Of a stretch of 64,000 nucleotides of DNA, positions 2,894 through 21,344 are shown one piece after another. The notes beneath the pieces are model-generated. The model had not been told where the DNA came from. It did not search any database and saw only the letters and a list, made by a program, of their open reading frames with translations. The DNA comes from a plasmid, in sequence record NZ_CP064874.1; one strand, given 5' to 3'. The translations under genes and the position numbers were made by a program. How positions within the stretch are numbered: the first letter of the stretch is position 1; every line of letters starts with the position of its first letter.

Positions 2894-3775
2894 CTACCTC
2901 GAGCTGGTGATGACTTCGATGATCCGGGGGGCGATCGCGGCCGGCGCCGGCGTGATGGGGTGTTCGGCGAGCTTGGTCGGGTCGGCTTCGCGCCAGATGA
3001 TCCGCCGCTCGTTGCACCAGGTGCAGCTCGCCCCCCAGTGGTACGGGTCGGCGTCGTGCAGCCTGGTGCGCAGCGGCGCCGCATAGGGGCTCTGGATACC
3101 GGCACGCCAGCGGACGTGTGGGTGGAGGTCGGCCGCGGAGAGGTACAGGCGACGCCCGATGCCGAGACCCGCGTACAGCTCCCAGCGGTTGCCATCGTCG
3201 TGCGGGTTGTCCGGGTTGATCGACGGGATGTCGTAGGGCTTCGAGAACACGTCACCGAACCCGTCGAAGGGATCGACGGCGAATCGTCCACGCAGACCGC
3301 TCGCAGCGTGCTGCAGCACGGTCATCGGGTTCCCCTCTGGCGTCGTGGTGCGCAGCAGGTAGATGGTCGGGTCGTCCACCACGCGCCTCACCCGATCGAC
3401 GTTCTCACGCGCGAGCTGTTCCGCGGCCGCGGCGGTGAGCAGCGGGTGGAGCAACTCGTCGTCACCGGCCTGCAGCACAGCCTCGGCCGCGGCCTCCTCG
3501 GCGAGGCCCGGAAGGTGCTCGAGCAGTCGCGGATGCCACTCGTTGGAATGCCGGGAGGTCCGCGCCCAGGCGTTCGCGATCTCGGTCAGCAGCATCGAAC
3601 GCGCCCATCGCTGTGCTGCATCGTCGAGGCCGTCGCTCTCTTCGAGCTCACGGAGCTGGTCGCGTGCGCGTCTGCGGCCGAACCAGCCCGCGGCCGCGAC
3701 TTCGGTCCGCGCGCGCCTGCGCCGCAGCACGCGCCGTAGGTACTCCCCTTCGGGGCTGTAGTACTCGTCGGACAT
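2894..3775 (-). CDS. Hypothetical protein, 293 aa, no recognised domain.
   Basis: Long ORF abutting the tadV stop; clean non-repetitive sequence. Confidence 0.5.
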   Translation of the reverse strand: MSDEYYSPEGEYLRRVLRRRRARTEVAAAGWFGRRRARDQLRELEESDGLDDAAQRWARSMLLTEIANAWARTSRHSNEWHPRLLEHLPGLAEEAAAEAVLQAGDDELLHPLLTAAAAEQLARENVDRVRRVVDDPTIYLLRTTTPEGNPMTVLQHAASGLRGRFAVDPFDGFGDVFSKPYDIPSINPDNPHDDGNRWELYAGLGIGRRLYLSAADLHPHVRWRAGIQSPYAAPLRTRLHDADPYHWGASCTWCNERRIIWREADPTKLAEHPITPAPAAIAPRIIEVITSSR

Positions 3776-4387
3776 TCAGCTGGCGAGGGTGGCGAGGGTG
3801 GCGACGATCGCGACGACCAGGCCGGCGGCGATCATGTAGGGGCCGAACGGGAGGTCCGTGCTCTCGTGTCCGTGCTTGCGTCGCACCGCCGCGATGATCG
3901 CGTGGGGGAACGCGAGGACGTAGGCGACCGCGATTGCGATGAACGGGAAGTACCAGGTGTGCCACCCGGTGAGCAGCCCCACGCTGAGAGCGAGTTTCAC
4001 GTCACCGAAACCGACTTGCCCGAGCAGCCCGAACGCTGCCAGCAACACCGCGAGGCCGAGTGCGCCGCTGATTGCAGAGATCGCTGCACCGCCGGCGCCG
4101 GCAGTGATCGCGAGAGCGAGGACGGTGCCCGTCAGGAAGGCGGCGAGCGTGAGTGTGAGCGCGTCGGGCAGTCGACGCTCCTGCAGGTCCGTGCGCGCCA
4201 GGAGCGCCCCGTAGACGCTGTAGACGCTGATCATGACCCAACTGCCGACCGTGAGCCCGAGATCGGGGCTCAGGGGCGCTGTGATGGCCGCTGACAGAGC
4301 GAAGCCCCCCACAGCCGCGAGCGGGTACCGCAACGCCGGGAAACGTCCCGCGCGCGCGCTTTGGGGGGCCTCACGAGTTGTGGTCAT
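3776..4387 (-). CDS. tadV: Type IV prepilin peptidase, A24 family (TadV/CpaA-like).
   Basis: Polytopic membrane protein with 'GFGDVKL' and 'PFGPYM' motifs. Confidence 0.8.
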   Translation of the reverse strand: MTTTREAPQSARAGRFPALRYPLAAVGGFALSAAITAPLSPDLGLTVGSWVMISVYSVYGALLARTDLQERRLPDALTLTLAAFLTGTVLALAITAGAGGAAISAISGALGLAVLLAAFGLLGQVGFGDVKLALSVGLLTGWHTWYFPFIAIAVAYVLAFPHAIIAAVRRKHGHESTDLPFGPYMIAAGLVVAIVATLATLAS

Positions 4388-4390
4388 GGG

Positions 4391-7300
4391 TCAGCTGGCG
4401 ATCGCGTGGCGCTGTCGCAGCTGAGCGATGAGGGACTGCGTCTCGGTGTCGGGCTCGTAGTCCTCGTCGACGGCGGCAAGGTTCTGCTCGAGCTGCGTGA
4501 TCAGTCGCTCGACGCCGGCGTGGTCGCCTGCCTGGTGCTCGGCGCGCAGACCGTCACGCCAGAAGACCTCGTTGATGGGGTCGACCATGCGTCCGATCGC
4601 GGAGGCGAGGCGTGCGTGTCGGACCTTCCCTGTGGACAGGCTGCGGGTGGCTACCTCATGGGCGACGTCGCCAATGGTCGCGATCATTTCGTTGCGCAGC
4701 CGGTCGGCGAACACGTAGCGCTTGTCGGGGACGCCGCTGATGGGCTGTCCCTTGACGAGCTCGAGCGCAGCGAGCAGCCGGTCGGTGGGGGTGTCAGAGA
4801 TCTCGTCACCGATGAGACCGAGGAAGTCCTGCCAGTCGGAGCGGACGTCCTCGTGCAGCCGGTACTCCCCCGTCGTCACGAGCGGCACATAGAGCTCGCC
4901 GTCATCGTTCTGTCCGAGCCAGCGGCGAGTCTTGGAGGTCAGCCCGTTGCGGTCGTCGTTTGCCTTCTTGCCCGAGGCGATCTGGCCGGGCCAGAACACG
5001 GCGTGTACCTGCTCGGCGGTGGCGTTCGGGTTCACCGACAAGAACGCGACCAGCTCGGTCCCCTTGCGGATTGCCGATCGCCACTGCGCGGCGGTGTTCG
5101 GGTTCACCGGCGCCTCTCCACGCGCGCCGCGAACCTCGACGGGTCCGAGCAGCTGCAGGTACGGCCCACGGTGCAGCGGTGTGATCGCCGCGAGCGGCTC
5201 GTCGTGCTCGGCCGCGGCCTCCTCGTCGACCAGGTCGACCGTGACGGTCTCCGCCGGCTCCTCGTCGACGGCGGCGGGTGCTGCCTCGTCCGCCTCGGAG
5301 ATCTCCGCCTCCTTCTCGGCGGCGACAGGCTCGGAGATCTCGACGTCGGGCTCGTCGACGAGCGGGAGCTGCTCGGCTTCGACCTCGTCGGCTTCGACTG
5401 CAGCGGCGGGGATCTCGTCGAGCTCGAGTTCGTCGTCGAGCGCGACGCCGGTAGCGGCGCCCTCTGTGGCGACGTCGAACAGCGCGAGGATCTCGTTGTA
5501 CTCGCGCGTGCCGACAAGCTGCGGGGTGATCGGGATGGCGACGCCGGTGCCGGGGATCTCGAGCTGAGCTCGACGGTCCTCGGTGAGTGCCAGGTTCCAG
5601 CTGCCCGTCAGGTGGCCGGCGCTGACAGCTGCGATACCGACCCGCGGGATCCGGGTGACCAGCTCGCTGATGGCTTCACGGGTGGCTTCGTCCGGGTTGT
5701 CGCCGAGGATGATGATTTCCGGCGCCCAGGCCTCCGCATCCGCTCCGGTAGTACGTGCCTGCTCGAGCCCGTCGACGCCGAGCTCAGCGAGAGCAGCTTC
5801 GACCGCCGCGGCCTGTCCGTGCAGGTTGCGCAGCAGCGTGTCGGTGTCCTCGACGTGACGCACGCGGCCGCTGCCGAGCGCGAGCGGGAGGCGATCGCCG
5901 ACGCCGACGAGGGTGACCTGGACGTCCTCAGACCAGGTGTTCGCGGCGAGCTCGATCGCGATGGCGGTAAGCACGCCCTGGCGCAGCTCTCCGGTGGCGC
6001 CGGTGACGTTGAGCGCACCGATCCGTTCCAGGTCGACGAAGATGTGCCCGTTGTTGTCGTCGTGGCCGAGCATGACCAGCGCCGGGTACGGCGCGGACGG
6101 GACCGTGTCGAGAGGCTCGAGGTCGGTCAGCGCGACCATCCAAGCGAGCTTGTCTTCGGGGTCGTACTGGGTGAACGGTGCCGGAAGGTCGGTCGGCTCG
6201 TCGAGGTAGACGGCGACCGAGCTCTCATCGAGGCGGAGGGCGTACAGCGCGGGGAGCCGGCTGCCGGTTTCCTGCGCCCACACGGCCAGGTGGCGCAGGG
6301 CTGTGTCGACCGCCTCGGCGCCCAGCGGGTTCTCCACGGCGCGCAGCTCGAGCTCCACGGAGGACACCGTCTCGTCGGGCATCGCGATCCGCTGGCGGGG
6401 CTTGCGGTCGCGGCGCTGCTTGAGACGCCGCCACCCGAGGAGGGTGAGGAGACCGGCGGCGAGTGTGGCGCCGATGCCTCCGATGGTGGCGACCTGGAAG
6501 TAGTCCTCAATGCCGCTCGTGTCGTCCTCGTCGACGTCGACGGCCGCGGCCGGAGCTGCAGCCTCGTCGACGGGCGCCTCGTCGGCGGGCGCCTGGGTGG
6601 CATCCGTGGTGAACCCCAGACCGCTTGTGGCCTCGTCCTCGGCCGCGGCATCCGCACCCGACGCGCCAGCGCCTTCGTCGGCGCCGCCGCCAGCACCCGC
6701 GGCACCAGCACCCTCGTCTGCGTCGACGTCGACGGCGCCGGCAGCGCCCTCGTCCGTGTCGATCGAGCCAGTGCTGCCGGTGGTGCCCGCCGCGTCGTCG
6801 GTCGGAGCGATGGGGACGACGGTGGCCACGGGGATGTTGACCTGCTGGCCGGGGTAGATCCAGTTCGGATCGGTGATGGTGCCGCCGCCAGGCTGAACGA
6901 TGTCTTTCGAGGCCTCGAAGATCTCGGGGTAGCGGGTACCGTCGCCGAGCTCCTCGGCCGCGATGTCCCACAGGGTGTCGCCGGAGACGATGGCACGCTG
7001 CTCGTAGGTGATCTCGGTGACCGTCTCCGCCTCGGCGCTTGCAGGCGCTGCCGCGACATCCGCTGCGGCTGGCACGACGGCGTCTGCCGGCAGGGTGAGC
7101 ACCCATCCCTCCTGCAGCCATCCCGATGCGGTCAGCGCTCCCCCATCGGCCTGCTGCACACCGAGGTTGAGCGCGGAGATCTCTGCAGCGCGGCTGCGGT
7201 CGCCCAGCGTGCTCTCCGCGATCCGGGCGAGTGTGTCCGTACCCGTCACCACGTACTGCGGGCCTGCCTCGACGACAGGGGCCTCCTCAGTCGCAGCCTC

Positions 7301-7714
7301 GGTGGTCGCAACCGAGACGACAGAGGTGCTCATCGACACCGAAGGCTGTGTGGGTACCTCTGACGCAAACGCGGCCGCGGGCGAGAACAGTGCGATGACT
7401 GCGGCGAGCAGACCGCCCATGACCTTCTGCTGGACGCCGAGGCCAGGGATCCGCGGCCGCGGCACGCCGCGCAGCTGCGCGGGCAGCTCGGCGAGGAAGC
7501 CGACAGCGAAGGTCGCCCACGCGATCCACGCGACGATCGGCATGATCGTCCCGATCAGGAAGGATCCGGTGTAGTCGCGCATCGTGAACCCGGCCACGAG
7601 CTCGTCCCACGACGGCAGCGGGTTGCCGGCGAAGAACACGAGCCCGGCGGGGATACCGACCAGGAGCACGGCGAGCAGGATCAGCGACCCGAGGCCCTTT
7701 CCGATGCGGTTCAT
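4391..7714 (-). CDS. Large membrane protein, 1107 aa. Three N-terminal TM helices, two LysM domains and a long acidic/Ala-rich linker. A fourth TM helix precedes a ~650-aa cytoplasmic region ending in a SARP-type winged-helix plus BTAD DNA-binding module.
   Basis: LysM: 'GDTLWDIAAEELGDGTRYPEIFEASKDIVQPGGGTITDPNWIYPGQQVNIP' and 'GTDTLARIAESTLGDRSRAAEISALN'. TM4: 'VATIGGIGATLAAGLLTLLGWRRLKQRRDRK'. SARP wHTH: 'LQLLGPVEVRG...EQVHAVFWPG...YRLHEDVRSDWQDFLGLI', then a BTAD-like helical region. Confidence 0.75.
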   Translation of the reverse strand: MNRIGKGLGSLILLAVLLVGIPAGLVFFAGNPLPSWDELVAGFTMRDYTGSFLIGTIMPIVAWIAWATFAVGFLAELPAQLRGVPRPRIPGLGVQQKVMGGLLAAVIALFSPAAAFASEVPTQPSVSMSTSVVSVATTEAATEEAPVVEAGPQYVVTGTDTLARIAESTLGDRSRAAEISALNLGVQQADGGALTASGWLQEGWVLTLPADAVVPAAADVAAAPASAEAETVTEITYEQRAIVSGDTLWDIAAEELGDGTRYPEIFEASKDIVQPGGGTITDPNWIYPGQQVNIPVATVVPIAPTDDAAGTTGSTGSIDTDEGAAGAVDVDADEGAGAAGAGGGADEGAGASGADAAAEDEATSGLGFTTDATQAPADEAPVDEAAAPAAAVDVDEDDTSGIEDYFQVATIGGIGATLAAGLLTLLGWRRLKQRRDRKPRQRIAMPDETVSSVELELRAVENPLGAEAVDTALRHLAVWAQETGSRLPALYALRLDESSVAVYLDEPTDLPAPFTQYDPEDKLAWMVALTDLEPLDTVPSAPYPALVMLGHDDNNGHIFVDLERIGALNVTGATGELRQGVLTAIAIELAANTWSEDVQVTLVGVGDRLPLALGSGRVRHVEDTDTLLRNLHGQAAAVEAALAELGVDGLEQARTTGADAEAWAPEIIILGDNPDEATREAISELVTRIPRVGIAAVSAGHLTGSWNLALTEDRRAQLEIPGTGVAIPITPQLVGTREYNEILALFDVATEGAATGVALDDELELDEIPAAAVEADEVEAEQLPLVDEPDVEISEPVAAEKEAEISEADEAAPAAVDEEPAETVTVDLVDEEAAAEHDEPLAAITPLHRGPYLQLLGPVEVRGARGEAPVNPNTAAQWRSAIRKGTELVAFLSVNPNATAEQVHAVFWPGQIASGKKANDDRNGLTSKTRRWLGQNDDGELYVPLVTTGEYRLHEDVRSDWQDFLGLIGDEISDTPTDRLLAALELVKGQPISGVPDKRYVFADRLRNEMIATIGDVAHEVATRSLSTGKVRHARLASAIGRMVDPINEVFWRDGLRAEHQAGDHAGVERLITQLEQNLAAVDEDYEPDTETQSLIAQLRQRHAIAS

Positions 7715-7730
7715 GATGCCTCCTTGGGGG

Positions 7731-8747
7731 TCAGGGGACGATGACCGTCTGCAGCTCGTTGACCTCGAGGTCGACTGCGCTGTTGGTGGTCAGGTTGATG
7801 GTGCCGCCGGGGCCGGCGAGAGAGGTCCACGTCACGGTCCAGTTCGTCGTGGCCGTGACCGTGAAGCGATCGCCGGGGTTCCGGCTCGAGGTCGACGTGT
7901 ACTGGTAACCGCAGGTCGGCGACGTCGTCATGCCGTAGCCGACGTTGTACGGGGTGCCGGTGTTGCCGCAGGTCGTCGACGCGCCGTCGCCCATCTGCCA
8001 GCGAACGGACGTGGCCTGAGCGGTCGCCGTGATCGTCTGCCCACCCAGCGTCGCGGTCTCCGTATAGGGGCCCCAGGTCAGGGGCTCGGGGTTGTTGACC
8101 CAGAGCCAGATCGGCACCCCGACGTAGCCGCGACGGTGACCCCATTCCGGGTTGACCTCGGGAGCCATGCCGATGTCGATGCCGCGCAGGGCGAACGTGG
8201 AGATGAGCTGTTGAGCAGCGGCACCCGGAGTGAGCACCCGCAGCCCCGGCGGGACCGTCTCACCCCAGAAGTTGCTCTCCGTGCCCAGGCCCGGCGATCC
8301 ACCGGGCGTCGGGTTGAACATGATGCAGCCGTAGTAGCCGGCCTCCTGCGAGTAGCCCGGCGGGCGGGCCGGCCATACGCCGTCCTTCATAAAGACGTAG
8401 CACTGCCGCGTGTTCGACCAGTACGAGTCGGATCCACCGCAGTCGATGATCGCGTAGAAGCGCTGGTAGGTGCCGCCCTCGAACACTCGAATCTGATCCT
8501 CGGTCCAGCCCAGCTGCAGAAGGCCAGACTGCGAGTTCTCGTAGTAGCAGGTCGGTGCGCCAGGGGTCCACCCGTTGCTGTCCGGGTTCGGCGCCGGATC
8601 CGAAGGTATCGAGATCGTGAGGTAGCAACGCGAAGACTCCGGGTCACACCAAACACCACCGGCAGCATTAGCAGGCGCAGCCGTGGCCATCAAGGTGCCT
8701 GCGATCAAGGCGATCGAGGCAAGGGCGGTGACTAGTCGTTTCAGCAT
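7731..8747 (-). CDS. Secreted protein with signal peptide (ends 'AAPANA'), Cys-containing, function unknown.
   Basis: N-terminal signal peptide 'MLKRLVTALASIALIAGTLMATAAPANAAG'; sits in the Tad operon tail. Confidence 0.55.
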   Translation of the reverse strand: MLKRLVTALASIALIAGTLMATAAPANAAGGVWCDPESSRCYLTISIPSDPAPNPDSNGWTPGAPTCYYENSQSGLLQLGWTEDQIRVFEGGTYQRFYAIIDCGGSDSYWSNTRQCYVFMKDGVWPARPPGYSQEAGYYGCIMFNPTPGGSPGLGTESNFWGETVPPGLRVLTPGAAAQQLISTFALRGIDIGMAPEVNPEWGHRRGYVGVPIWLWVNNPEPLTWGPYTETATLGGQTITATAQATSVRWQMGDGASTTCGNTGTPYNVGYGMTTSPTCGYQYTSTSSRNPGDRFTVTATTNWTVTWTSLAGPGGTINLTTNSAVDLEVNELQTVIVP

Positions 8748-8766
8748 GCGATCTCCCGAGCTACGG

Positions 8767-9378
8767 TCAGCAGCTCTCCCCCAGACTGATCAGGTTGTAA
8801 ACCAGCCAGGTCTCGCTCTCGCTGTCGTAGACGACCTGGTAGTCGAAGGTGCTGCGAGCTTCGGGGCGCATGGCCTCCGACCCGTCGCTAGCCCAGACCT
8901 TGTACTCGCTCGCGTCCTGGCAGGCATTGATCGTGACAAGACCGTTCTCGATGCCTTCCCACTCCTGCCCGTAGGAAGCAACCGTTTCGTACTTGATCGC
9001 TCCCTCTGTGGTTGCGGGGCCTTCGACGTTCACCTGGTCGACGTTGAGAATCGGCCCCTCTGCGATGCCAGCTGCATCGTTGACAGCGACCTCGAGAGCT
9101 CGCCCGGTCGCCCACGCCTCAAGCGGCGCAGTATCGGTACCACCAGCTGCGTTGACCTCGCCCCGTGTGACGAAGTACTGGGTCAGCACGGTCTCCGCTG
9201 CGGTGATCGCCTCATCCTCGCTCGCCGGCGGCGGAACCTGTGCGTTGCTGGCGGTAGGCGTGGGGGTCGGGGTGTCTGTGGGGCTGGCGGTGGGGTTCTG
9301 GTTGCCGGTGCCCGTGCATGCGGTCAGCGTCAGTGCGGCGGCGATGATGCCGGCGATGGCGAGGCGCTTGATGCTCAT
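8767..9378 (-). CDS. Lipoprotein (lipobox LTAC), Thr/Pro-rich linker, function unknown.
   Basis: 'MSIKRLAIAGIIAAALTLTACTG' signal plus lipobox, then a PT-rich linker. Confidence 0.6.
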   Translation of the reverse strand: MSIKRLAIAGIIAAALTLTACTGTGNQNPTASPTDTPTPTPTASNAQVPPPASEDEAITAAETVLTQYFVTRGEVNAAGGTDTAPLEAWATGRALEVAVNDAAGIAEGPILNVDQVNVEGPATTEGAIKYETVASYGQEWEGIENGLVTINACQDASEYKVWASDGSEAMRPEARSTFDYQVVYDSESETWLVYNLISLGESC

Positions 9379-9388
9379 GGTGGGGCTC

Positions 9389-9799
9389 CTATTGGGTGAT
9401 CAGCTCTGCGGTGGCTGTGGCTTGGACGGGGAACGGCACGGGGAGGAAGGTTGCCGAGTAGTCGGTGTCGACGGTGACGGTGATGCGGTCGCCGCTGACG
9501 GCGACGCTTCCTCCGACGCCAGCGGCGGCGAGGTAGCCGTTGGCGGCGCTGACGGCTCGGTTGCTGTCGATCGCGGTGGTGCCGTCGATGATCGCTTGGC
9601 CGCTGACCGCGTTCGCTGCGGCTCGGGCGGCACTGGCTGCGGTGGTGTAGGCCTGCTGGTTGGCTTGCACCTTGCCGGCGCCGTCGACGACGAGTCCGAC
9701 GATCGCGAGGAACGCGACGGTCATGATGACGAAGTAGATCGTCGCGACGCCCTTGTCGTCACGGAACTTGGCTTGGAGCCTCTGGATCATGGTTTTCAT
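9389..9799 (-). CDS. TadE/TadG-like pseudopilin.
   Basis: N-terminal 'GVATIYFVIMTVAFLAIVGLVVDG' TadE-type hydrophobic segment; position after flp and tadE. Confidence 0.6.
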   Translation of the reverse strand: MKTMIQRLQAKFRDDKGVATIYFVIMTVAFLAIVGLVVDGAGKVQANQQAYTTAASAARAAANAVSGQAIIDGTTAIDSNRAVSAANGYLAAAGVGGSVAVSGDRITVTVDTDYSATFLPVPFPVQATATAELITQ

Positions 9800-10257
9800 C
9801 GCCGCTCCCTGTAGGCGTCGACCGGAGAAGCAGCGGTGCCTGTGAGGTCGCGGGTGCCGGGGAGGCCGATCATGGCGGCGTCGCTGAGTGCGACGGTGCA
9901 GGAGACGGTCGCACTGACTCGGCCGGTGGTCCCGATCGGGGCGCTCAGGCCAGAGGCGTCGATGTTGACGGAGAGGGTGGTGCAGTTGACGCCGGACTGT
10001 TCCATCGAGATCCGCGCCATGTCTTCGGCGGCTTCCTGCGCCTCGGCTGTGGTGCGCGCGAGCGAGGCTTCGCGAGCTGCGGCTGACGCTGCGGACTCGA
10101 CGGCATTGCCGGCCAGAGCGAGACGTCCGGAAGCTGCGAGCAGCACGAGCACGGCGGCGAGGGCCGGGGCGAGGATGGCGATCTCGAGGCCGGCGGAGCC
10201 GCGGTCGTCGCGGAGCTTGGCAATGAGGGTGCGGATGGTGCGCATCAGTTGACCCAC
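9796..10257 (-). CDS. tadE: TadE-like pseudopilin.
   Basis: 'RGSAGLEIAILAPALAAVLVLLAASGRLA' TadE N-terminal motif. Confidence 0.6.
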   Translation of the reverse strand: MGQLMRTIRTLIAKLRDDRGSAGLEIAILAPALAAVLVLLAASGRLALAGNAVESAASAAAREASLARTTAEAQEAAEDMARISMEQSGVNCTTLSVNIDASGLSAPIGTTGRVSATVSCTVALSDAAMIGLPGTRDLTGTAASPVDAYRERR

Positions 10258-10658
10258 CTTTCAGTGGGGCCGGTCACGGTGACGTCGATGTTGGTGGTCA
10301 GTCCGGGGACGAAGGAGGGGGCGTTGCCGGTGACGGTCACTGTCACGGTGTTGGCGCCGCGGTCGACCGCGACGGACGCGCCGCTGATCGGTGAGCCGGA
10401 CTGGTTCAGGACAGCGAGGCCGGCGGTGGAGCCGTCTGTTCCGCTGGCGTTGTAGGCGCGGGCGGCGTTGTAGGCGCTGGTGGCGGCGGCGTGGGCGAGG
10501 TTGTTGGCGTGAAGGATGATGCCCAGGTGCAGGAAGACCGCGAGGACGAGCAGCAGTACCGGGGCGATGATCGTGTTCTGCAGCGTGGCCGCACCCCGAT
10601 CACCGGCGAGCGCTTCTCTGAGGCGCTGCCGGTGACCGGGGTTGGTGGTGCGGACCAT
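10245..10658 (-). CDS. tadE: TadE-like pseudopilin.
   Basis: 'RGAATLQNTIIAPVLLLVLAVFLHLGIIL' TadE N-terminal motif. Confidence 0.6.
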   Translation of the reverse strand: MVRTTNPGHRQRLREALAGDRGAATLQNTIIAPVLLLVLAVFLHLGIILHANNLAHAAATSAYNAARAYNASGTDGSTAGLAVLNQSGSPISGASVAVDRGANTVTVTVTGNAPSFVPGLTTNIDVTVTGPTERWVN

Positions 10659-10673
10659 CTGCGGGTGGCTCTT

Positions 10674-10868
10674 TCAGCCGGTGGGGATCTGACCGGCGTA
10701 GGCGTTGATCGCGGTGACGATGATCGCCACGACGGCCACCGCGGCGAGCGCGATCCCGGCGGTCCAGATGACCTGCTCGAGGGTGATGGAGCCACGTTCG
10801 GGCTCTTCGGTGAAGCGAGCTGCCCGCCCGCGCATGCGGGACAGGAACTCTCGGCTCAGGGTCGACAT
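10674..10868 (-). CDS. flp: Flp/Fap-family type IVb pilin precursor.
   Basis: 64 aa. Charged leader, then 'ERG/SITLEQVIWTAGIALAAVAVVAIIV' (G/XXXXE processing motif plus hydrophobic helix). First gene after the promoter motif. Confidence 0.65.
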   Translation of the reverse strand: MSTLSREFLSRMRGRAARFTEEPERGSITLEQVIWTAGIALAAVAVVAIIVTAINAYAGQIPTG

Positions 10869-10917
10869 AGGATCCTGGTTCCTTTCTCTCTCTGGGTGGG
10901 TGGTGCTTGGTCTACTA

Positions 10918-10954
10918 GGTATAGGCCCCGGTTTGGAGCCTTCGCGGACATCGG
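10918..10954 (-). promoter_or_regulatory. Copy 2 of the conserved 37-bp bipartite motif, oriented leftward toward flp.
   Basis: On the minus strand: CCGATGTCCGCGAAG-N13-GCCTATACCT, about 50 bp upstream of the flp ATG. Confidence 0.5.
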
Positions 10955-10969
10955 TGGATAAACAACCTT

Positions 10970-11851
10970 TCAGAAGAAAGCGTTGAGAACGAACGGTGTG
11001 CCGAGGAGGAGCATGAAGAGGACGCCGGTGAGGGTCATCGGGATGGTCATCTTGTTGGTTGCTTTGTTCGCCTCCGTCACTTCGTCATTCAGAAGTCGGT
11101 CCCGGAGGTTCTGCCCCCGTGCCCTGAGTGTCTCATATACCGATGCTCCTTGCTCCCCTGAGAGCCTGATCACCTTGGCGATTTCACCCAGGTCGGGGAC
11201 GTTGATCTCGACGGAGAGCTGCTCGAGCGCGTCCCAGGGGGCGGTACCGGCGTAGCGGGCTTCGGTGAGGGTTTGGCGGATACGGACGAAGGCCCAGTTG
11301 CGTCCGACTTGGGCTGCGGACTCGAGGGCTTTGCCGGGAGGGGCGCCGCTGATGCGTTCGGATCCGACGAGCTCCATGTAGACGGCGACCGAGCGGGAGA
11401 ACTCCTTGCGGGCGGCTTCGGCTTGGTCGCGGACGAGCAGGTTGGGCAGGTACCAGCCGCCGATGGCGAGGGGGATGCCGAACAGTGCGGGGATGTAGAA
11501 CGCGGTCAGGCCGAGGACTTGGAAGATCAGTCCGATCGCGATGGGGGCGATGAGGCCGAGGCCGGCGGAGAGCACCTTCTGGTACAGGAACCGGTTGACG
11601 CTCATGCCGATCAGGCGCAGATCGCGGGTGGGGATCTTGAGCGAGGGGCTGTCGCCGACGCGACGGAGGACGGCTGAGCCTACCCGGTTCTCAAGGGTGG
11701 CGGCGTAGGCGGGGTCGGCGGCGACGGTGGTGGTGCCGATCCGATCGAGCGCTGCGGAGAGGCTGGGCTGGGTGGGCACCAGTGCGGCGATGACCAGCGC
11801 GAAGCCGAGCCCCAGGACGAGGCCAGGGAGGACGATTAGTGCGAGGTTCAC
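10970..11851 (-). CDS. tadC: Tad pilus inner-membrane platform protein TadC (T2SS F-like).
   Basis: Polytopic membrane protein following tadB. Contains one of the two copies of the 17-mer GAGTGTCTCATATACCG (11125-11141). Confidence 0.7.
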   Translation of the reverse strand: MNLALIVLPGLVLGLGFALVIAALVPTQPSLSAALDRIGTTTVAADPAYAATLENRVGSAVLRRVGDSPSLKIPTRDLRLIGMSVNRFLYQKVLSAGLGLIAPIAIGLIFQVLGLTAFYIPALFGIPLAIGGWYLPNLLVRDQAEAARKEFSRSVAVYMELVGSERISGAPPGKALESAAQVGRNWAFVRIRQTLTEARYAGTAPWDALEQLSVEINVPDLGEIAKVIRLSGEQGASVYETLRARGQNLRDRLLNDEVTEANKATNKMTIPMTLTGVLFMLLLGTPFVLNAFF

Positions 11852-12714
11852 TTCTCACCAGCTTTCTCGGAGGCAACGAGCAGACGGGGTGCCGGCACGC
11901 CGCGGCTGATGCGTCGCATCCACAGCAGTACGAGGGCGTAGCTGACGAGGTACGCGGCGAACAGGAGTTGACCGATCGGGGTGCCGTAGGGGGCGGAGTA
12001 CTGCTGGGCGAGGACCAGAAGTACGAGCAGCGCGACGGTGAAGTAGACGACGAACCTGGCCTCGTTGCGCGGGGTGGCGCGGTCGGCTTCGATCTGTCGG
12101 CGCATCTTGACCCGCTCGAAGATGCTCTTGGCGAGATCCTCGAGCGAGGCGGCGAGACCGGAGCCGCGGAGCTCGGCCTTGCGGAGAAGATGCATCACGA
12201 GCACGTCCGCGGTCTCGTCGTTGAGATCGTCGGCAAACGCCTGCAGCGCCGCGGTGGTGGTCCACCGGGCGTTGATGCGCGCGACGAGCTGCGTGACCTG
12301 TGGGCGGATCGCTTCGGGGCAGCTGCTCAGCGATGCGGCGATGGTGCGTTCGAGGCCGGCACCGGAGACGGTGAGGCCGGCGAGGCTGCGGGTCCAGGAC
12401 TCGAGGGCGTCGAGCTTGGCGATCGTGTTCTCCTCGGGGCCCTTCTGCAGCAGCCATGGCAGGCCGACAGCGGCGACGGGCACCGCGATCACGAGCAGCC
12501 ACCATCCGGTGATCAGCGCGAACACCAGACCGACCGCGGCGCCGCCGACGAGCTGGATCTGCTGCGTGCGGGTGAAGTCGCGTGTCGCCTTCCCGCGAAG
12601 TGCGCTGCGCGTGGGCAGCCCACTGGTGCTGGGCTTATGGGCGGCGCCGAGGATGACCAGGATCGCGCCGGCCACCGCGACGATGATGCACAGAGCGAGG
12701 GTTGCGGTAGTCAT
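11848..12714 (-). CDS. tadB: Tad pilus inner-membrane platform protein TadB.
   Basis: Polytopic membrane protein between tadA and tadC; start overlaps the tadA stop. Confidence 0.7.
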   Translation of the reverse strand: MTTATLALCIIVAVAGAILVILGAAHKPSTSGLPTRSALRGKATRDFTRTQQIQLVGGAAVGLVFALITGWWLLVIAVPVAAVGLPWLLQKGPEENTIAKLDALESWTRSLAGLTVSGAGLERTIAASLSSCPEAIRPQVTQLVARINARWTTTAALQAFADDLNDETADVLVMHLLRKAELRGSGLAASLEDLAKSIFERVKMRRQIEADRATPRNEARFVVYFTVALLVLLVLAQQYSAPYGTPIGQLLFAAYLVSYALVLLWMRRISRGVPAPRLLVASEKAGEK

Positions 12715-12715
12715 C

Positions 12716-14341
12716 TCACACTCCCAGGTTCGCGGGATCGAAGCCGTAGAACTTGAGCTCCTCGAGGAGCCGCGGCGATGGCATGTCAGCGGTGATGAGG
12801 CTGCCGGTGGATCGGTCGAAGCGGAACACCTGAGAAGCCACAGGGCGGGAGTTGTTCTGCTCCTCGCCGGGCAGGATCTCGGCGATCTCGGTGACGACGC
12901 GGCGGGGCTTGCCGGTAGCGGGGTCGATGATCTTCGAGATCTGCACCACGATCTTGATGTTCTGCTCGATCATCCGGTAGGCGTACACGGGGGTCGTGTT
13001 GTTGCCGCGCGACAGCATCAGCGCCGACATGCGGTCGATCGAGTCGTCTGCGCTGGCGGCGTGCAGAGTGGACAGCGACCCGACACCGGACTGCATGGCC
13101 TGCATCATGGCGTAGATCTCAGGCCCGCGGACCTCACCAACGATGAAGCGCTGCGTGTCCAGTCGGAGGGTGTCGTAGACCAGGTCTTCGGGGGTGATCT
13201 CACCAGGCAGCCGCCCATCGGCGCCACGCTCCCCCTCCCCCGGCTTCGCCTCGAGCGAGACCACTCGAGGGTGGCGGTCGTTGATCTTGTGAAGGTAGAG
13301 CTCACGCTCCATCTCGATTGTGACGATCTTCTCCTCGGCCGGGATGCAGTCGGCGAGCGCGCGCAGCAGTGTGGTCTTGCCTGCGCCGGGGAAGCCGCTG
13401 GTGACGACGGAGACCCCGGCGATGACGGCCGCGCGGAGGAAGGCTGCCGCCTGGCGGGTGATGGTGCCGCGCTCCACGAGCTGGTCGAGGGTGACGTCGA
13501 CGAGGCGGTGGATACGGATGACGATCGTGGGGCGGGTGGCGACGGGTTCGGCGATCGCTGCCAGGCGCGCTCCGCCGGGCAGGTCCATGTGCAGTCGCGG
13601 CCGGGCGCTCGTGAACGATCGTCCGCCCTCACCCGAGCGGGCGGCGAGCAGGTTGATCTCTCGCTCGAGCTCACGGTCATTCTCGGCGATCGGGTACTGG
13701 TACTTGACCACGCGGCCGTCCGCGTAGGAGATCCAGACGTCGTCGAACCCGTTGATGTGGATGTTCTCAACGTCGGGCTCGTCGACGAGCGGCTGCAGCC
13801 GACCCAGGCGGAACAGCTGGTCGAAGACGGCCTGCCGGATCGCGGTCTGCATCGGCGCCGGCCAGCGGCCCTCGCCGGGGCGTCGGGTCTGGTCGTCGAC
13901 GCGAGCTCGGACCCGGTCAACGATGTGGTCCTGCGCTGTCTGCTCGCGCTGCTCGGCAGTGATGTCCATGGACTCGCTGAATACCGCGGCGAGCTCACGG
14001 GAGACCTCGTCGCGAATGGCGGCGATGTCGGCCCAGGGCAGATCGCTGCGCGCGTCGAGGGTGGTTTGCGGAGTGACCTCGGGTGCAGGCCGTTCGGGGG
14101 TGGAGGGCGGTGTCGGCACGATCGGAGCAGCAGGTGTCGTGGGGGCGGCTTCGGCCGGAGCGTTCCGCTGCGCCGCACGGGTCAGGTGCGCGGCGGCGTG
14201 TCCCAGGTTGCGCAGGCCCGTGTCGGCCGGTGCGGTCGTTGGTGCCTGCGGTGTTGCCGGTGCCGGCGCGGTGGCCGGTGCTGGCGCGGTGAAGAACGGG
14301 ATGTTGCCCAGGTCTGCAGGGTCGGGCGTGGAGTCGCTCAC
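12716..14341 (-). CDS. tadA: TadA/CpaF secretion ATPase with a Pro/Ala-rich N-terminal extension.
   Basis: Walker A 'SGFPGAGKTT' and T2SS-E-like core. The track ORF extends to 14638 and overlaps tadZ. Proposed start is GTG 14341..14339, overlapping the tadZ stop (GTGA). Confidence 0.85.
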   Translation of the reverse strand: MSDSTPDPADLGNIPFFTAPAPATAPAPATPQAPTTAPADTGLRNLGHAAAHLTRAAQRNAPAEAAPTTPAAPIVPTPPSTPERPAPEVTPQTTLDARSDLPWADIAAIRDEVSRELAAVFSESMDITAEQREQTAQDHIVDRVRARVDDQTRRPGEGRWPAPMQTAIRQAVFDQLFRLGRLQPLVDEPDVENIHINGFDDVWISYADGRVVKYQYPIAENDRELEREINLLAARSGEGGRSFTSARPRLHMDLPGGARLAAIAEPVATRPTIVIRIHRLVDVTLDQLVERGTITRQAAAFLRAAVIAGVSVVTSGFPGAGKTTLLRALADCIPAEEKIVTIEMERELYLHKINDRHPRVVSLEAKPGEGERGADGRLPGEITPEDLVYDTLRLDTQRFIVGEVRGPEIYAMMQAMQSGVGSLSTLHAASADDSIDRMSALMLSRGNNTTPVYAYRMIEQNIKIVVQISKIIDPATGKPRRVVTEIAEILPGEEQNNSRPVASQVFRFDRSTGSLITADMPSPRLLEELKFYGFDPANLGV

Positions 14342-15165
14342 TGCTGTCCCTCCCAGTCGGTGGTTGTGTATGTGCGGGTGTTGAGGACATCGCTGTAGCT
14401 GTGCAGCAGTGCGCCGATGGCCCGCGAGTAGGGGGTGCGCTGGGCACCGAGGGTGGGTGCGCCGACCGAGTAGATAGCGGCGCCCTTCGGATCCCAGGGG
14501 ATGGTGCCCAGCAGGTTCATGCCGATCTGCTTGGTGACGGTCTTGAGAGGCCAGGTCTCCTGCGTGGTGGAGCGTTCGGTAACGAGGAGATCCACGTAGC
14601 TGGCGTGCCCGATCTCGTTGAGCGTGTTCAGCAGCCACTCGGGGACGGTGTTGCGGTTCTCGTCGAGGGATCGCCAGTGTGCGAGCACGGCTGCCACGGA
14701 GGGCAACGTGCGATCGGTGAACAGGGTGATGCTGTCCGCCTCGCGCAGTAGCGGGAGACGAGGGTCGTTGACGTGGAGGCGCCCGCCGTCGACGAGGATG
14801 TCGTAACCGGCGGACTCGTAGGGTCGCAGCGCGTCGAGCAGTGCCCGCCAGAAGTGGGGGCCCGCGCCGGCGGCGCCCTGCAGGCTCTTGAAGCCGGGGA
14901 TGAGCACTGAGCGGGGGCTGAGCTCGACGGTCTGCTCCCAGAGCTTGTCAGGGGTCAGAGCGCCGTACTGGTCTGCGACGGCCGCTTCGGTCAGTCCGGT
15001 GCTGTGGTAGACCTGCCCGCGGATGAGTCCGGGGATGATGCTGCTGGTCTTGGTGGTGTCAGCCTCGACGAGGATCACGGGCTTGGACCAGTTGAGGGCC
15101 AGGGCGCCGGCGGCGGTGGTCACGCCGGGGGCGCCGGACGCGCTGGCAAGGAAGATGATCGCCAT
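14338..15165 (-). CDS. tadZ: TadZ/CpaE-like ParA/MinD-family pilus localisation protein.
   Basis: Positioned between cpaB and tadA; degenerate P-loop region near the N-terminus. Confidence 0.6.
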   Translation of the reverse strand: MAIIFLASASGAPGVTTAAGALALNWSKPVILVEADTTKTSSIIPGLIRGQVYHSTGLTEAAVADQYGALTPDKLWEQTVELSPRSVLIPGFKSLQGAAGAGPHFWRALLDALRPYESAGYDILVDGGRLHVNDPRLPLLREADSITLFTDRTLPSVAAVLAHWRSLDENRNTVPEWLLNTLNEIGHASYVDLLVTERSTTQETWPLKTVTKQIGMNLLGTIPWDPKGAAIYSVGAPTLGAQRTPYSRAIGALLHSYSDVLNTRTYTTTDWEGQQ

Positions 15166-15171
15166 GCGGGG

Positions 15172-15864
15172 TCACTCCCCCGTCGAGTCGATGACCAGCG
15201 CGACACGGCCGGTGGCGGCACGAGCGGCGATGTCGGGTGCTTCACGGTTCGGCACGACCAGGTCGACAACCCACACCTGGGTCTCAGTGTCGTAGGTGGC
15301 GGTGAACACCGTGGCGTCGAAGCTCTTGGGGGTTTCGACGGGCGGGTCGCCCTGAGTGACGGGGGTCTCGACGACACGGACGTTGTCGCCTGCTGCGAGC
15401 TGGTAGCCGGGCATCTGCGCCTGGGTGAGCGTGACGCCCACGATCGAGGAGCCGGACGGCACCGCGAGGGTGTCGCCGGTGTTGGCCGACGTGATGAGGG
15501 TGCCAGCGGGCAGGTCGACCAGCGCGGTGGTTCCGACGAGGTCGGCGGCATCCGCGGCGGAGACGGCGTCGACCTGCTGCCCGCCGGCGAGCTGGATGGT
15601 CGTGAGGTCGTCTGTGGTGATCGTCTCCCCGCGTGAGACATCGACGCTGGTCGCCATGACGCTGACGGTGCGGGTGAGGTTCGTGGTGACCCACCACACG
15701 CCGATTCCGCCGAGGAGGACAAGCGCGATGCCGAGGGCGATGATCGCGGGGCGCCGGCGAGACTTCGTCGGCTGCAGGACTGCAGGAGTGAGTCCTTGCT
15801 TCTGCTCGCCCTGCTCGGTGGTGTCTTTCGTGCGCTTGCTCTTGCGGTCAGTGGTGGTGGTCAT
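15172..15864 (-). CDS. cpaB: Flp pilus assembly protein CpaB/RcpC (N-terminal TM plus SAF-like domain).
   Basis: Basic N-terminus, one TM helix, then beta-rich 'VDVSRGETITTDDLTTIQL...'. First gene of the tad ATPase operon. Confidence 0.7.
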   Translation of the reverse strand: MTTTTDRKSKRTKDTTEQGEQKQGLTPAVLQPTKSRRRPAIIALGIALVLLGGIGVWWVTTNLTRTVSVMATSVDVSRGETITTDDLTTIQLAGGQQVDAVSAADAADLVGTTALVDLPAGTLITSANTGDTLAVPSGSSIVGVTLTQAQMPGYQLAAGDNVRVVETPVTQGDPPVETPKSFDATVFTATYDTETQVWVVDLVVPNREAPDIAARAATGRVALVIDSTGE

Positions 15865-15982
15865 TGGAAGTCAGTCCTTCAACGTGGGCGGATGTGGCGT
15901 AGGTGTCTAAGCAGTTCGGTGAGTGTCTCATATACCGCTGTCGCGACAGCTGGTCTTCTGCTGTAGCTGGACACCGCACCGT

Positions 15983-16582
15983 CTATTCGAGAGGCGGAAG
16001 GAATGCCTCGTAGGCGGTGATGATGACGAAGTTCCGGGAGGGAGCATCGAGTTCAGCGGTGACGCGATCGAGGATCGCGCGGTACGACGGGGCAACGCGC
16101 ACGGTGTGCTTGACGCGAGGCCCCGCATCAGTGACGGGGGCGGGACGCTTCTGCCGGTTGAACAGATCCGTCCAGTCCTCGTCAGTCTCTTCTCCGCCGG
16201 CGGTGGCCTGGCGGATCAGTTCAGGAAGACGCTTATAGGTGGCCGAGACGGCGTCCAGGAGGACCGTCTGGTGGCTCTTGCGCGTCTTGGCCATGTACGC
16301 CTGCAGTCGGTCGTTCAGCGGGACCGGAAGGTGGACAGGGACGCCCTTGGTCGCGGTCTCCCGCTCCTCCCCCTCTCCCCCGTCTTCGTCCTCCGCGCGG
16401 GTCGTGCGAGTCGGCTGCTTGCGCGGCGCCTGCTTCTTCGCAGGAGCGGCCGCAGGTTCGACCGCCGCTGCAGGGACGGGCTCGGTGGGCGGAGCCTGGT
16501 CGACGGTGGGCTCCACGGGTTCTGCGGGAGCCGGCGTCGGCACGGCGCGGCGGGTGAGTTTTCCGAGATCCTGGCGTGCCAC
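15983..16582 (-). CDS. ParG-like centromere-binding protein. Long Pro/Ala/Glu-rich disordered N-terminus and C-terminal RHH.
   Basis: C-terminal 'GVPVHLPVPLNDRLQAYMAKTRKSHQTVLLDAVSATYKRL' fits strand-helix-helix. Immediately downstream of parA. Confidence 0.5.
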   Translation of the reverse strand: MARQDLGKLTRRAVPTPAPAEPVEPTVDQAPPTEPVPAAAVEPAAAPAKKQAPRKQPTRTTRAEDEDGGEGEERETATKGVPVHLPVPLNDRLQAYMAKTRKSHQTVLLDAVSATYKRLPELIRQATAGGEETDEDWTDLFNRQKRPAPVTDAGPRVKHTVRVAPSYRAILDRVTAELDAPSRNFVIITAYEAFLPPLE

Positions 16583-16583
16583 G

Positions 16584-17258
16584 TCAGGCCTCCTTCATCT
16601 GGTTGGCCCACAGCGATGTGAGCTCCAACGCGACACTGGTGTAGTCGGAGATCGCTGCTTGGTTCTTGCGGGAATCGGTGTACTGCGTGACGACCTTGCC
16701 GTCGTAGGGAGCGTCCTCGATGCTCGCGGACAGGCGGATGTGACGCTGGAACCGCGGGAGTCCGATCTGTCCTTCGATGAACTCGACGGTGTCGAGCTGC
16801 TCTTCCCAGTCCTCGAGTCGCCGCCCGCCTCGGCGGGTGTCGATCTTGTTCAGCAGGAGTCGGTAGGGCACCCCAGTCGGGATGATGTGCTCGGCGAGCG
16901 TGTCCGCGACGGACTCGATGGCCATGGTGGCCGCTTCGAGCGGCAGGACGATGAAGTCGGCGACCTGCAGGACTGCGGTGAGAACGCCGGTGTTCTCATG
17001 GCTGCCAGGTGTGTCGACGAGGACGATGTCGTATCCGTCGAGGTCACGCAATCCCATGATGTTGTTGGGGTCGACGTCGGCGGCGAAGTCGAACGGAAGG
17101 TCATCCCCCGCGCGCTCGGCCCAGCGTGCTGCGGACTGCTGCGGGTCGACGTCGACCACGAGCACATTGTTAGCGCGGGACAGCGCGGCCGCGAGGTTCA
17201 TGACGGTGGTGGTCTTGCCCACCCCGCCCTTCTGGTTGCAGACGCCGATGATTCTCAC
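16584..17258 (-). CDS. parA: ParA-family partition ATPase.
   Basis: Deviant Walker A '[12 protein letters not shown]', 224 aa. Confidence 0.85.
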
Positions 17259-17289
17259 GATCGGCCTCCACGGCTGAGGGCGTTGGCAG

Positions 17290-17870
17290 CGGTCGCGCCA
17301 GTCGAGCGCGCGGTGTGCGGATGTGTGGCGCGGGTATGGGGCAACTGTGGCGGGTTCATGGGCGCCAGTATAGCGTCACATTCACGCCTATATGCAACAA
17401 CAATCGCGCGTGTCTGGCGCGACACATGCGCTAGAGCATGTGGAGCTACGGCGCTAGAACTGTGCGATGAACGCGCTCTGTCGGTGCAAGAACAACGCAA
17501 GCAGAGCGCTTGACAGTGCGCATCATCTAAAACAAGACCCGCGCCATAGTGGCTACATACGGGCACAAGCAATGCGCAAGTAAGGGGCCGTACAGGCGAC
17601 AGCCGGGCGCTCGTAATGCGCACGTTAGAGCGCAACAGCATGCGCGGGTAGGGCGATGTAATAGCGCGAATATTGCAGTTGATATTGCGGATGGCTGGCG
17701 CGGGTATGGCGCGGGGGTTGCTCAGCGTATCGCGCAAGTGATGCGGTGATCTGGCGGGGGAGTGGCGGAGGCTATCGCGGTGTTGCTGCGAGGGTACAGC
17801 GCAGAGCATGGCGGCGGGGTGGCGCGTGTGTAGCGCGGCGCTGGCGATGGTGGGGTGCGCGGTGTCGCGA
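17290..17870. repeat. Repeat-dense non-coding region upstream of parA. More than 25 GCGC-core boxes at ~11–12-bp phasing with AT-richer spacers; candidate partition centromere or iteron origin.
   Basis: TGCGCA palindromic core at least 3 times exactly (17572, 17627, 17517) plus many ATGCGC/AGCGC variants. The 13-mer GGCGCGGGTATGG occurs exactly twice (17328, 17697). No credible ORF across 17259-18114. Confidence 0.5.
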
Positions 17871-18114
17871 GGGCTGGTCATGGAGTCGTGGTGGGGCATC
17901 CAAACGATGGATGCGGGCGTAGACGGGCCTGTGCGGCCTGCTGAGGCGATTTCGGCCATGAGGAGGGCTCCGAGTGAGGCGGAGGGGAAGACAGGGCCCC
18001 TGGGGGCCATCCAGAGGCCCTGTCTGTCTGGGGGGGCGGAGCGGGAGTGTTGCTCCGGCCTGTGGGGAGCGCTCGACTCGTCGACTGCGCTTGCCCCCTG
18101 GATGGCGGGTTGGC

Positions 18115-18879: not shown

Positions 18880-19102
18880 GAGAAATGGCCCTTCGTCGTG
18901 ACGTCGGTTGACGAAGGGCCACGTTCCTCAGCACCCCTGGTTCAGATCCTGGAAAGTTCCGGCCGGGCAGGAGAGCGCCCGATCGGCGGATGCTGGCTTC
19001 GGTGGATCTGAGTTGCGATCCGATGCTGTAAATACCTGTTCAGGGGCGGTTTCCATGCCTCGCTGCATGGGCGCAATATCCACGCAAGATTTCTTCGATC
19101 CG

Positions 19103-19139
19103 CGATGTCCGCGAAGGGCCGAAAACCCGGCCTATACAG
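19103..19139 (+). promoter_or_regulatory. Copy 3 of the conserved 37-bp bipartite motif, oriented rightward toward the conjugation operon.
   Basis: CGATGTCCGCGAAG-N13-GCCTATACAG, about 50 bp upstream of GTG 19192. Confidence 0.5.
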
Positions 19140-19191
19140 ATATGCCCCCGTTGGTCGGGAGGCATCAGGACTCCGCGGAAGGGACAGAAAC

Positions 19192-19428
19192 GTGAGCGAG
19201 AGCAGCACCGCAGACAGCGCCGACGACGCCATGTGGGAAGGATTCAAGCCCGACGCTGCACGCGCGATCCGTGCGCGCCAGGGGTTCGAGGAAGCAGTGG
19301 CGAGCACTCTCGACGCACCCTTCGACCCCTCCACGCATGGTCGCGTGGTGAAGGCGGTTGAGGAGCTTTCGGCAGCGGTGCCGGCAGCTCTGCGGGTGGC
19401 GCAGCTGCGAGTGGGAGGAGCTGCATAA
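19192..19428 (+). CDS. Small acidic hypothetical protein (~78 aa), first gene of the conjugation operon.
   Basis: GTG start preceded by 'GGAAGGGA' SD; the stop overlaps the next ATG (TAATG). Confidence 0.35.
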   Translation: MSESSTADSADDAMWEGFKPDAARAIRARQGFEEAVASTLDAPFDPSTHGRVVKAVEELSAAVPAALRVAQLRVGGAA

Positions 19429-21342: not shown

Positions 21343-21344
21343 CC

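Follow-up and report, generated by a model that had tools for sequence, protein, structure and literature searches.

The plasmid stretch analysed here (the window: 64,000 nucleotides of sequence record NZ_CP064874.1, from a Microbacterium plasmid) encodes, at 4391-7714 on its minus strand, a protein of 1107 amino acids (aa) that joins LysM domains, four transmembrane (TM) helices, an FtsK-like domain and a SARP-type module. We tentatively interpret it as a conserved accessory part of the monoderm Tad/Flp pilus system of Actinobacteria, which is borne largely on plasmids or integrative and conjugative elements (ICEs), and most likely as a membrane-tethered, machine-associated activator of the SARP type. 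Given its place at the end of the tad operon, with LysM domains predicted outside the cell and FtsK-like and SARP domains inside, the gene product probably links the pilus machine to gene control.

Predicted domain architecture of the tethered SARP protein

We concluded that the C-terminal part of the protein is a divergent SARP module, that is, an OmpR-type winged helix-turn-helix (wHTH) domain followed by BTAD. The AlphaFold2 (AF2) model of residues 845-1107, with a predicted local distance difference test score (pLDDT) of 92.9, shows strands, three helices and a hairpin, and then a helical repeat domain. When the model was compared with the PDB by Foldseek, all six matches at E <= 1e-3 were SARP domains, from AfsR (8k60/8hvr) and EmbR (2fez/2ff4). 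These alignments were near full length (267-273 columns, TM-score 0.57-0.62, E 1e-6 to 5e-5), and the next matches were generic TPR proteins at E > 0.1. For the predicted BTAD half, homology has statistical support at the family level: Pfam BTAD (PF03704) matched 14 of 22 relatives at E <= 0.01 (best 1e-8), and a precomputed BTAD annotation is present for several homologues. The protein itself scored 18.0 bits (E 0.004), below the cut-off of 22.1 bits. The C-terminal SARP proposed in the initial annotation thus holds at the level of the fold and for BTAD in these relatives, while the query itself stays under the Pfam thresholds.

The wHTH half is predicted from the modelled fold and the register of its motifs. 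An hhalign comparison with sequences of the PhoB and OmpR DNA-binding domains gave E-values of 0.44 and 0.034, neither of them significant, and put three elements in the register expected of them: helix 1, the wing and the recognition helix (RNGLTSKTRRWLG against RTVDVHIRRLRKAL). By tblastn, residues 869-1082 matched an annotated BTAD regulator of Mycolicibacterium (E 7e-6). The region of the recognition helix carries a net charge of +3 to +5 in most relatives, in a protein that is otherwise very acidic; R930 and G934 do not vary, and R922 and W932 hardly do. Conservation of the wHTH (0.56) is like that of the other folded domains, compared with 0.29-0.32 for the linkers. A weak match to KorB in a profile search of PDB sequences (E 0.003, profile positions 588-633) was taken as chance.

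Compared with the SARPs ActII-ORF4, DnrI, AfsR and EmbR, the protein shares the order of an OmpR-type wHTH and then BTAD, and SARPs were the only significant structural matches of this part. It differs from them in that the module is C-terminal (residues 851-1107) rather than N-terminal, is tethered to a four-TM protein with LysM domains instead of being soluble, belongs to a pilus operon and not to a biosynthetic cluster, and has no target repeats that we could see. The protein is therefore an atypical, membrane-tethered bearer of a SARP module, an arrangement that had been called unusual from the sequence and that the position of the module after four TM helices bears out. Chromosomal members of the Cryobacterium type (P0097, P0098, P0111 and P0115; for example L002, 10001-12820) are 939-967 aa long. 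This clade keeps the wHTH, and its BTAD is truncated or replaced after about two helices, which offers a natural means to separate the roles of the two SARP halves.

A second domain lies between the membrane and the SARP module. Its model (residues 441-800, built from a 48-sequence alignment) has a pLDDT of 83 overall and >90 in the core, and Foldseek matched it to FtsK motor domains (E 5e-11), the coupling protein TcpA of pCW3 (2e-9) and EccC/EssC (1e-6), identifying an FtsK-type RecA fold. The P-loop position is degenerate (GATGELRQ, 572-579), as is the Walker B position (EIIILGDNPD, 666-675). All 48 aligned relatives lack GK[ST] at the P-loop position, which is variable and often acidic, and the DE of Walker B is likewise missing across family members. 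Residues 441-761 gave no match to Pfam FtsK_SpoIIIE at E <= 10; the plasmid's intact coupling protein matches this family at E 1e-13. These data suggest a pseudo-ATPase of the FtsK/EccC fold, with no canonical ATP binding or hydrolysis predicted. Failing both Walker motifs, the protein is not an FtsK ATPase in the enzymatic sense.

The domain differs from FtsK/SpoIIIE, TcpA and EccC/EssC in lacking GK[ST] and DE, and it is a single domain with no active ATPase beside it. We rejected the possibility that the gene encodes the plasmid's coupling protein, given the dead Walker motifs and the separate intact FtsK_SpoIIIE gene at 28513-30624. Recent paralogy of the middle domain with that FtsK-like protein was likewise rejected (BLASTP E 0.27, though the P-loop register coincides). 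In AfsR, too, the SARP module is joined to a P-loop-fold domain, which is a STAND NB-ARC domain there and a dead FtsK/EccC-type domain here. The initial annotation was right that the cytoplasmic part ends in a SARP module; it described some 650 residues without the FtsK/EccC-like domain of about 320 residues, the presence of which makes the mechanistic picture different from that of a linker and a SARP alone.

Hydropathy places TM helices at residues 8-29, 52-75, 98-117 and 408-427. Lysine and arginine are clustered at the N-terminus, in the loop 76-97 (4) and in 421-445 (9, RRLKQRRDRKPRQR), and the loop 118-407 contains 6 K/R against 53 D/E. By the positive-inside rule, this distribution fits an N-in topology, with residues 118-407 predicted outside and 428-1107 (~680 residues) inside. 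Conservation of the TM bundle equals that of the folded domains, with G7, G20, P22, L25, W63 and W66 invariant. The second LysM domain (243-295) was found by Pfam at E 7e-5, or 1e-6 when the N-terminal third was scanned alone, by NCBIfam (PRK11198 LysM, E 3e-14) and in a profile search of PDB sequences (Kbp/YgaU LysM, E 2e-9). The first (~153-209) received no Pfam call in this sequence; the family profile spans both units of two-LysM structures, namely LytE over 145-249 and Ecp6 over 155-292. Hydropathy, charge counts and domain matches thus agree with the order read at the outset, in which three TM helices, two LysM domains, an acidic linker (net charge -27 over 298-405) and a fourth TM helix precede a cytoplasmic SARP module. 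A second acidic linker, in the cytoplasm, has a net charge of -30 over 761-850. The same topology prediction puts both LysM domains, of which the second is recognised by hidden Markov model (HMM), outside rather than in the cytoplasm.

Family distribution and linkage to tad operons

Pfam matches around the gene confirm that it lies inside a Tad pilus operon, as had been noted from the sequence, and it is co-oriented with the tad genes. A strong ribosome-binding site (AAGGAGG) lies 5 nt ahead of its ATG. The preceding gene for a secreted protein stops 16 nt upstream (stop at 7731) and the ATG of the prepilin peptidase follows 3 nt past the stop codon, so the gene is an internal member of a tightly packed operon. 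The first 20 kb of the window share 93.5% identity with pYJNG, a plasmid of Microbacterium sp. YJN-G, in which the counterpart of the gene is annotated as "LysM peptidoglycan-binding domain-containing protein".

The architecture is not unique to the window. A protein search returned 315 relatives, and an exhaustive search with the cytoplasmic part returned 552 clusters at E <= 1e-30, of which the best 150 had nearly all the same length and layout. A scan of one genome per species yielded 182 encoding stretches, from taxa including Microbacterium, Arthrobacter, Cellulomonas, Isoptericola, Promicromonospora, Jiangella, Nostocoides, Actinopolymorpha, Microlunatus, Nocardioides, Klenkia and Propionibacteriaceae. 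By tblastn, relatives were found on 232 plasmids (149 of Streptomyces, 29 of Rhodococcus, 8 of Curtobacterium, 6 each of Micrococcus and Cutibacterium, and others). One of these, WP_003527384.1 on p11-79, is 30% identical over residues 446-1090 (E 1e-19) and occupies the same operon position.

Linkage was counted in 80 fetched genome loci with 10-kb flanks. TadA was present in 68 of them, and in nearly all of these 68 the core tad set is immediately upstream and co-oriented; the exceptions are mostly short contigs, together with two Arthrobacter loci with only the peptidase nearby. The survey of homologues suggested in the initial annotation therefore revealed a very tight linkage. In Cryobacterium, a Microbacterium-type metagenome-assembled genome, Antribacter, Cutibacterium acnes p11-79 and Streptomyces pRVR1, the gene follows the minor pilin genes in the same orientation. 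The gene is a conserved distal member of almost every plasmid-type actinobacterial Tad operon.

The pair of LysM and BTAD is already known from a table of the Tad locus of the Propionibacterium acnes plasmid pIMPLE-HL096PA1, where PAGK_2369 is listed with the Pfam entries "LysM, BTAD" and labelled a TadB homologue without comment (PMC3666418, 2013); we liken it to the present protein by its place in that table and its Pfam entry. The topology, the pseudo-ATPase and the family-wide conservation are not described there. Some members carry the name "YgaU / DNA-binding SARP family transcriptional activator" in JGI annotation. A full-text literature search found no functional study of the family, the table entry being its sole mention. 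The family is thus a widespread, unstudied and near-constant part of actinobacterial tad operons: an extra gene, annotated "LysM protein", that occurs in plasmids of Streptomyces and Rhodococcus, in Microbacterium and Micrococcus, and in C. acnes Flp-pilus plasmids linked to acne and prostate isolates.

Proposed role in the pilus system

If the protein is a machine-associated activator, the LysM domains would fix it in the peptidoglycan at the pilus site, and the TM bundle and pseudo-ATPase domain would make contact with the Tad platform, be it with TadB/C, TadA, the TadZ-like protein or a membrane prepilin; alternatively, bundle and pseudo-ATPase might oligomerise as FtsK/EccC domains do. That state would control the pairing of tethered SARP modules on promoter direct repeats and the recruitment of RNA polymerase, as in AfsR. 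Pilus assembly or envelope state would in this way be coupled to how the tad genes, and possibly neighbouring transfer genes, are expressed. In SARPs, a dimer of the DNA-binding domain binds direct repeats overlapping the -35 element and BTAD contacts RNA polymerase (PMC11301090). A more specific scheme, which we consider rather unlikely, casts the protein as a new class of regulator built into the machine: a peptidoglycan-anchored base subunit, the pseudo-ATPase ring of which would read the state of the pilus motor or the membrane pilin pool and directly gate a tethered SARP that binds plasmid DNA at the membrane. Pilus assembly would thereby be coupled to the transcription of neighbouring conjugative transfer genes, or to DNA recruitment for them, in plasmids and ICEs of Actinobacteria.

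The logic of an OmpR-type wHTH held at the membrane by a protein with an extracytoplasmic domain is shared with ToxR, TcpP, CadC and PsaE. Some regulators of this type control pilus or fimbrial genes, such as TcpP/ToxR in Vibrio cholerae and PsaE in Yersinia. Neither the parts nor their order are the same: in ToxR and CadC, the wHTH is N-terminal and a single TM helix leads to a periplasmic sensor at the C-terminus, whereas the present protein is reversed, with four TM helices, a pseudo-ATPase and BTAD, and no sequence relationship to them was shown.

Several observations weigh against an activator. Pfam Trans_reg_C gave no match in the protein (E <= 10) and none in its 22 relatives (E <= 0.01), so that, unlike in known SARPs, the DNA-binding domain is unseen by this HMM. 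Neither the family profile nor the C-terminal profile reached SARPs among PDB sequences, in a search that found LysM proteins. DNA binding therefore rests on the predicted fold. BTAD is needed for activation in classical SARPs, yet it is truncated in the Cryobacterium clade. Strict operon membership beside structural genes is what one would sooner expect of a component of the machine than of a regulator, and BTAD/TPR-like and pseudo-ATPase domains are often protein-protein interaction modules. Finally, a search for operators in the upstream regions of the operon and of its relatives found no DNA target. The GTGTCT repeats proposed at the outset as the SARP target, which read AGACAC on the strand of the operon, consist of two hexamers at 15903-15928 with a spacing of 20 nt, within an intergenic stretch of ~118 nt (15865-15982) between a par-associated gene and the SAF gene. 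Most aligned Microbacterium relatives have no counterpart of this stretch and almost no intergenic gap before SAF, the upstream gene ending ~2-30 nt from the SAF start; the repeats are thus not conserved in them, and we rejected them as a conserved SARP operator. Autocorrelation of 7-mers in the 180 nt upstream of SAF in 40 non-redundant loci gave the 3-nt (coding) signal only and no 11- or 22-nt peak, many of these stretches being coding.

As the SAF gene of most aligned Microbacterium relatives starts a few to ~30 nt past the par-associated gene, the operon promoter may lie upstream of parA. A promoter and terminator consensus scan of 3500-19500 gave nothing above the shuffled expectation. 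Upstream of parA, a repeat cluster at 17543-17711 (+) contains two copies of a 42-nt unit at a spacing of 44 nt, two of a 14-nt unit at 56 nt and one 12-nt tandem (ATATTGCAGTTG/ATATTGCGGATG). These repeats are probably a partition site or operator, and the cluster could also contain the promoter for parA, its partner gene and the tad operon. In Promicromonospora, a 127-nt non-coding block lies ~200 nt upstream of the SAF gene and tad operon. The block is 89-98% identical, holds an 11-nt tandem (TTGAAGTCTCC/TTGACCTAGCG) and is partly conserved in Antribacter; its upstream flank diverges. It is a lineage-restricted candidate operator or promoter. An Rfam scan of the window and of the Promicromonospora locus L043 found no RNA family.

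The truncated BTAD and the failed operator search also fit a structural scaffold, an explanation that deserves serious weighing although we think it unlikely. In that case LysM would anchor the Tad machine to peptidoglycan, the TM helices and a ring of pseudo-ATPase domains would make up or stabilise its cytoplasmic base, much like the EccC DUF domain in type VII secretion, and the SARP fold would have been co-opted for protein binding. The protein would then have no part in transcription and be a functional analogue of FimV/HubP or TsaP of type IVa pili. This is consistent with the fixed operon place between minor pilins and prepilin peptidase, with a TM bundle as conserved as the soluble domains and with the match of the family LysM profile to the type IV pilus protein TsaP (3jc8, E 9e-6). 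Moreover, the secretin, TadD and RcpB are missing from the tad loci of monoderms, so another part must deal with the wall. FimV itself has, besides LysM, a TM segment, a cytoplasmic TPR-like domain and highly acidic stretches. The likeness of FimV/HubP and TsaP extends to a LysM domain in a pilus-system protein; they belong to diderm type IVa systems and have no wHTH or FtsK fold, and no homology beyond LysM was found. What speaks for an activator instead is that the wHTH has retained its SARP/OmpR topology, with a recognition helix that stays basic and conserved in the family, and that the long, flexible acidic tether fits a domain reaching beyond the membrane. We know of no precedent for a complete wHTH-BTAD module as a purely structural element.

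It is improbable that the protein serves in DNA docking for conjugation or uptake, as a motor-dead, FtsK/TraB-like membrane protein with a wHTH that would bind repeats on the plasmid and keep its DNA at the Tad pilus or type IV secretion system (T4SS), or hand DNA to the active FtsK-like coupling protein. The layout does parallel that of FtsK/SpoIIIE and TraB, with N-terminal TM helices, a linker, an FtsK fold and a C-terminal winged helix (FtsK-gamma in the case of FtsK). The plasmid also holds TcpC, a VirB4-like ATPase, an M23 peptidase and the active FtsK_SpoIIIE protein, and many relatives are plasmid-borne, as counted above. T4SS markers (TcpC or others) occur within 10 kb in at least 26 of the 80 genome loci, a lower bound because TcpC in our own window lies >10 kb from the gene. 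C. acnes Flp plasmids, in which FtsK-like, VirB4 and TcpC genes were noted, have the same combination, and a link between Flp pili and conjugation was raised there and left as a question (PMC5696575); Tad pili are needed for transformation of Micrococcus luteus (PMC4322843). The repeat arrays upstream of parA would offer binding sites, though they are more simply read as a partition site. Against docking, degenerate Walker A and B motifs in each of the 48 members mean that the domain cannot be a motor, and the wHTH is of the SARP/OmpR class with BTAD, a combination for transcription activation, and not FtsK-gamma. A weaker counterpoint, in view of the short flanks, is that 44 of the 68 tad-linked loci, several of them on chromosome-sized contigs, carry no T4SS marker within 10 kb.

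Very improbable is a strict LysM sensor, in which free muropeptides or a recipient cell wall detected outside would switch on the SARP: a LysM-out, SARP-in topology would suit it and plant LysM receptor kinases signal in this way, but the LysM domains of a monoderm sit in its own peptidoglycan and would be constitutively saturated, which makes anchoring a simpler reading than the sensing of cell-wall material put forward in the initial annotation, and no part of the family is less constant than the LysM region (in several relatives the match begins only at about residue 440 or the length is ~650-720 aa, some of them possibly being fragments).

Gram-positive Tad pili are poorly understood, both in what replaces the outer-membrane and periplasmic parts and in how the loci are regulated. 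If the protein is a regulator, SARPs would not be limited to soluble activators of antibiotic pathways, and the family would show that Gram-positives, too, have control of the ToxR/TcpP style over a type IVb-like pilus. If it is structural, EccC would no longer be the single case of an FtsK-fold pseudo-ATPase close to the membrane in a machine for secretion or pili. In both cases, the family offers a concrete way to ask whether these Tad pili are functionally tied to conjugative transfer in Actinobacteria.

Operon and plasmid neighbourhood

The domains of the protein and the surrounding genes are listed in Table 1. Divergent from the tad operon, the gene set at 19428-30624 looks like the transfer genes of a Gram-positive-type conjugation system.

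Table 1 Coordinates of the protein, its domains and neighbouring features in the window (127-nt block: coordinates in locus L043)
Feature	Coordinates	Strand	Basis or remarks
Prepilin peptidase (Peptidase_A24)	3776-4387	-	Pfam; next gene downstream
LysM-SARP protein, open reading frame (ORF), 1107 aa	4391-7714	-	Open reading frame with translation
Residues 961-1107, BTAD (TPR-like helical domain) and C-terminal helix	4394-4834	-	Pfam 18 bits in query, relatives, Foldseek
Residues 851-960, OmpR-type winged-helix DNA-binding domain (predicted)	4835-5164	-	AF2 topology, Foldseek, conservation, charge
Residues 761-850, cytoplasmic acidic linker	5165-5434	-	Net charge -30, weakly conserved, low pLDDT
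Residues 446-760, FtsK/EccC/TcpA-like RecA-fold pseudo-ATPase (predicted)	5435-6379	-	Predicted structure, Foldseek, motif alignment
Residues 406-445, TM4 (408-427) and basic juxtamembrane RRLKQRRDRKPRQR	6380-6499	-	Topology; R430 and R437 invariant
Residues 298-405, extracytoplasmic Ala/Glu/Asp/Gly-rich acidic linker	6500-6823	-	Net charge -27, weakly conserved
Residues ~238-297, LysM2, extracytoplasmic	6824-7003	-	Pfam, NCBIfam, profile search
Residues ~151-210, LysM1, extracytoplasmic, degenerate	7085-7264	-	Family profile over two-LysM structures
Residues 1-120, N-terminal bundle of three TM helices	7355-7714	-	Hydropathy, positive-inside counts, conservation
Secreted Cys-rich protein, 338 aa, signal peptide	7731-8747	-	Directly upstream; kept in 71/86 related loci
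Putative lipoprotein, 203 aa	8767-9378	-	Pfam, weak NTF2-like match
Three TadE/TadG-like minor pilins (9389-9799, 9796-10257, 10245-10658)	9389-10658	-	Pfam
Flp-type pilin, 64 aa (...ERG/SITLEQV...)	10674-10868	-	Read from sequence; 63-aa gene in same place in related loci
TadC	10970-11851	-	Pfam; order as in pYJNG
TadB	11848-12714	-	Pfam; order as in pYJNG
TadA/CpaF ATPase (ORF)	12716-14638	-	Pfam; order as in pYJNG
TadZ-position protein	14338-15165	-	Operon position; order as in pYJNG
SAF/RcpC-CpaB-like protein	15172-15864	-	Pfam; order as in pYJNG
parA	16584-17258	-	Precedes tad operon, with small partner gene (199 aa, par-associated)
TcpC	19428-20417	+	Divergent from tad operon
VirB4-like AAA_10 ATPase	21575-24097	+	Divergent from tad operon
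676-aa protein	24094-26124	+	Divergent from tad operon
M23 peptidase	26131-27378	+	Divergent from tad operon
Intact FtsK_SpoIIIE coupling-type protein	28513-30624	+	Walker A GGTGSGKT; divergent from tad operon
127-nt block	L043 2846-2972		No Rfam match; also in L042, L045-L053, L057-L059, L064, L065, L070, L072 and L083; partly in L005 and L066

The secreted Cys-rich protein encoded directly upstream may be a pilus-associated adhesin or partner protein. In Promicromonospora, it is encoded not upstream of the LysM gene but several kb downstream. Among the related loci, L006 has a WXG100 gene (1200-1493) just upstream of the tad locus, and the Cryobacterium locus L002 has genes for a PP2C phosphatase, an FHA protein and a Ser/Thr kinase (16571-20511) a few kb downstream.

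Farther along the window, the minus strand encodes a 1145-aa protein with HEPN_Swt1 and DUF499 domains (42865-46302) and a 1162-aa SNF2/ResIII helicase with a NOV_C domain (48924-52412), which may together form a plasmid defence island.

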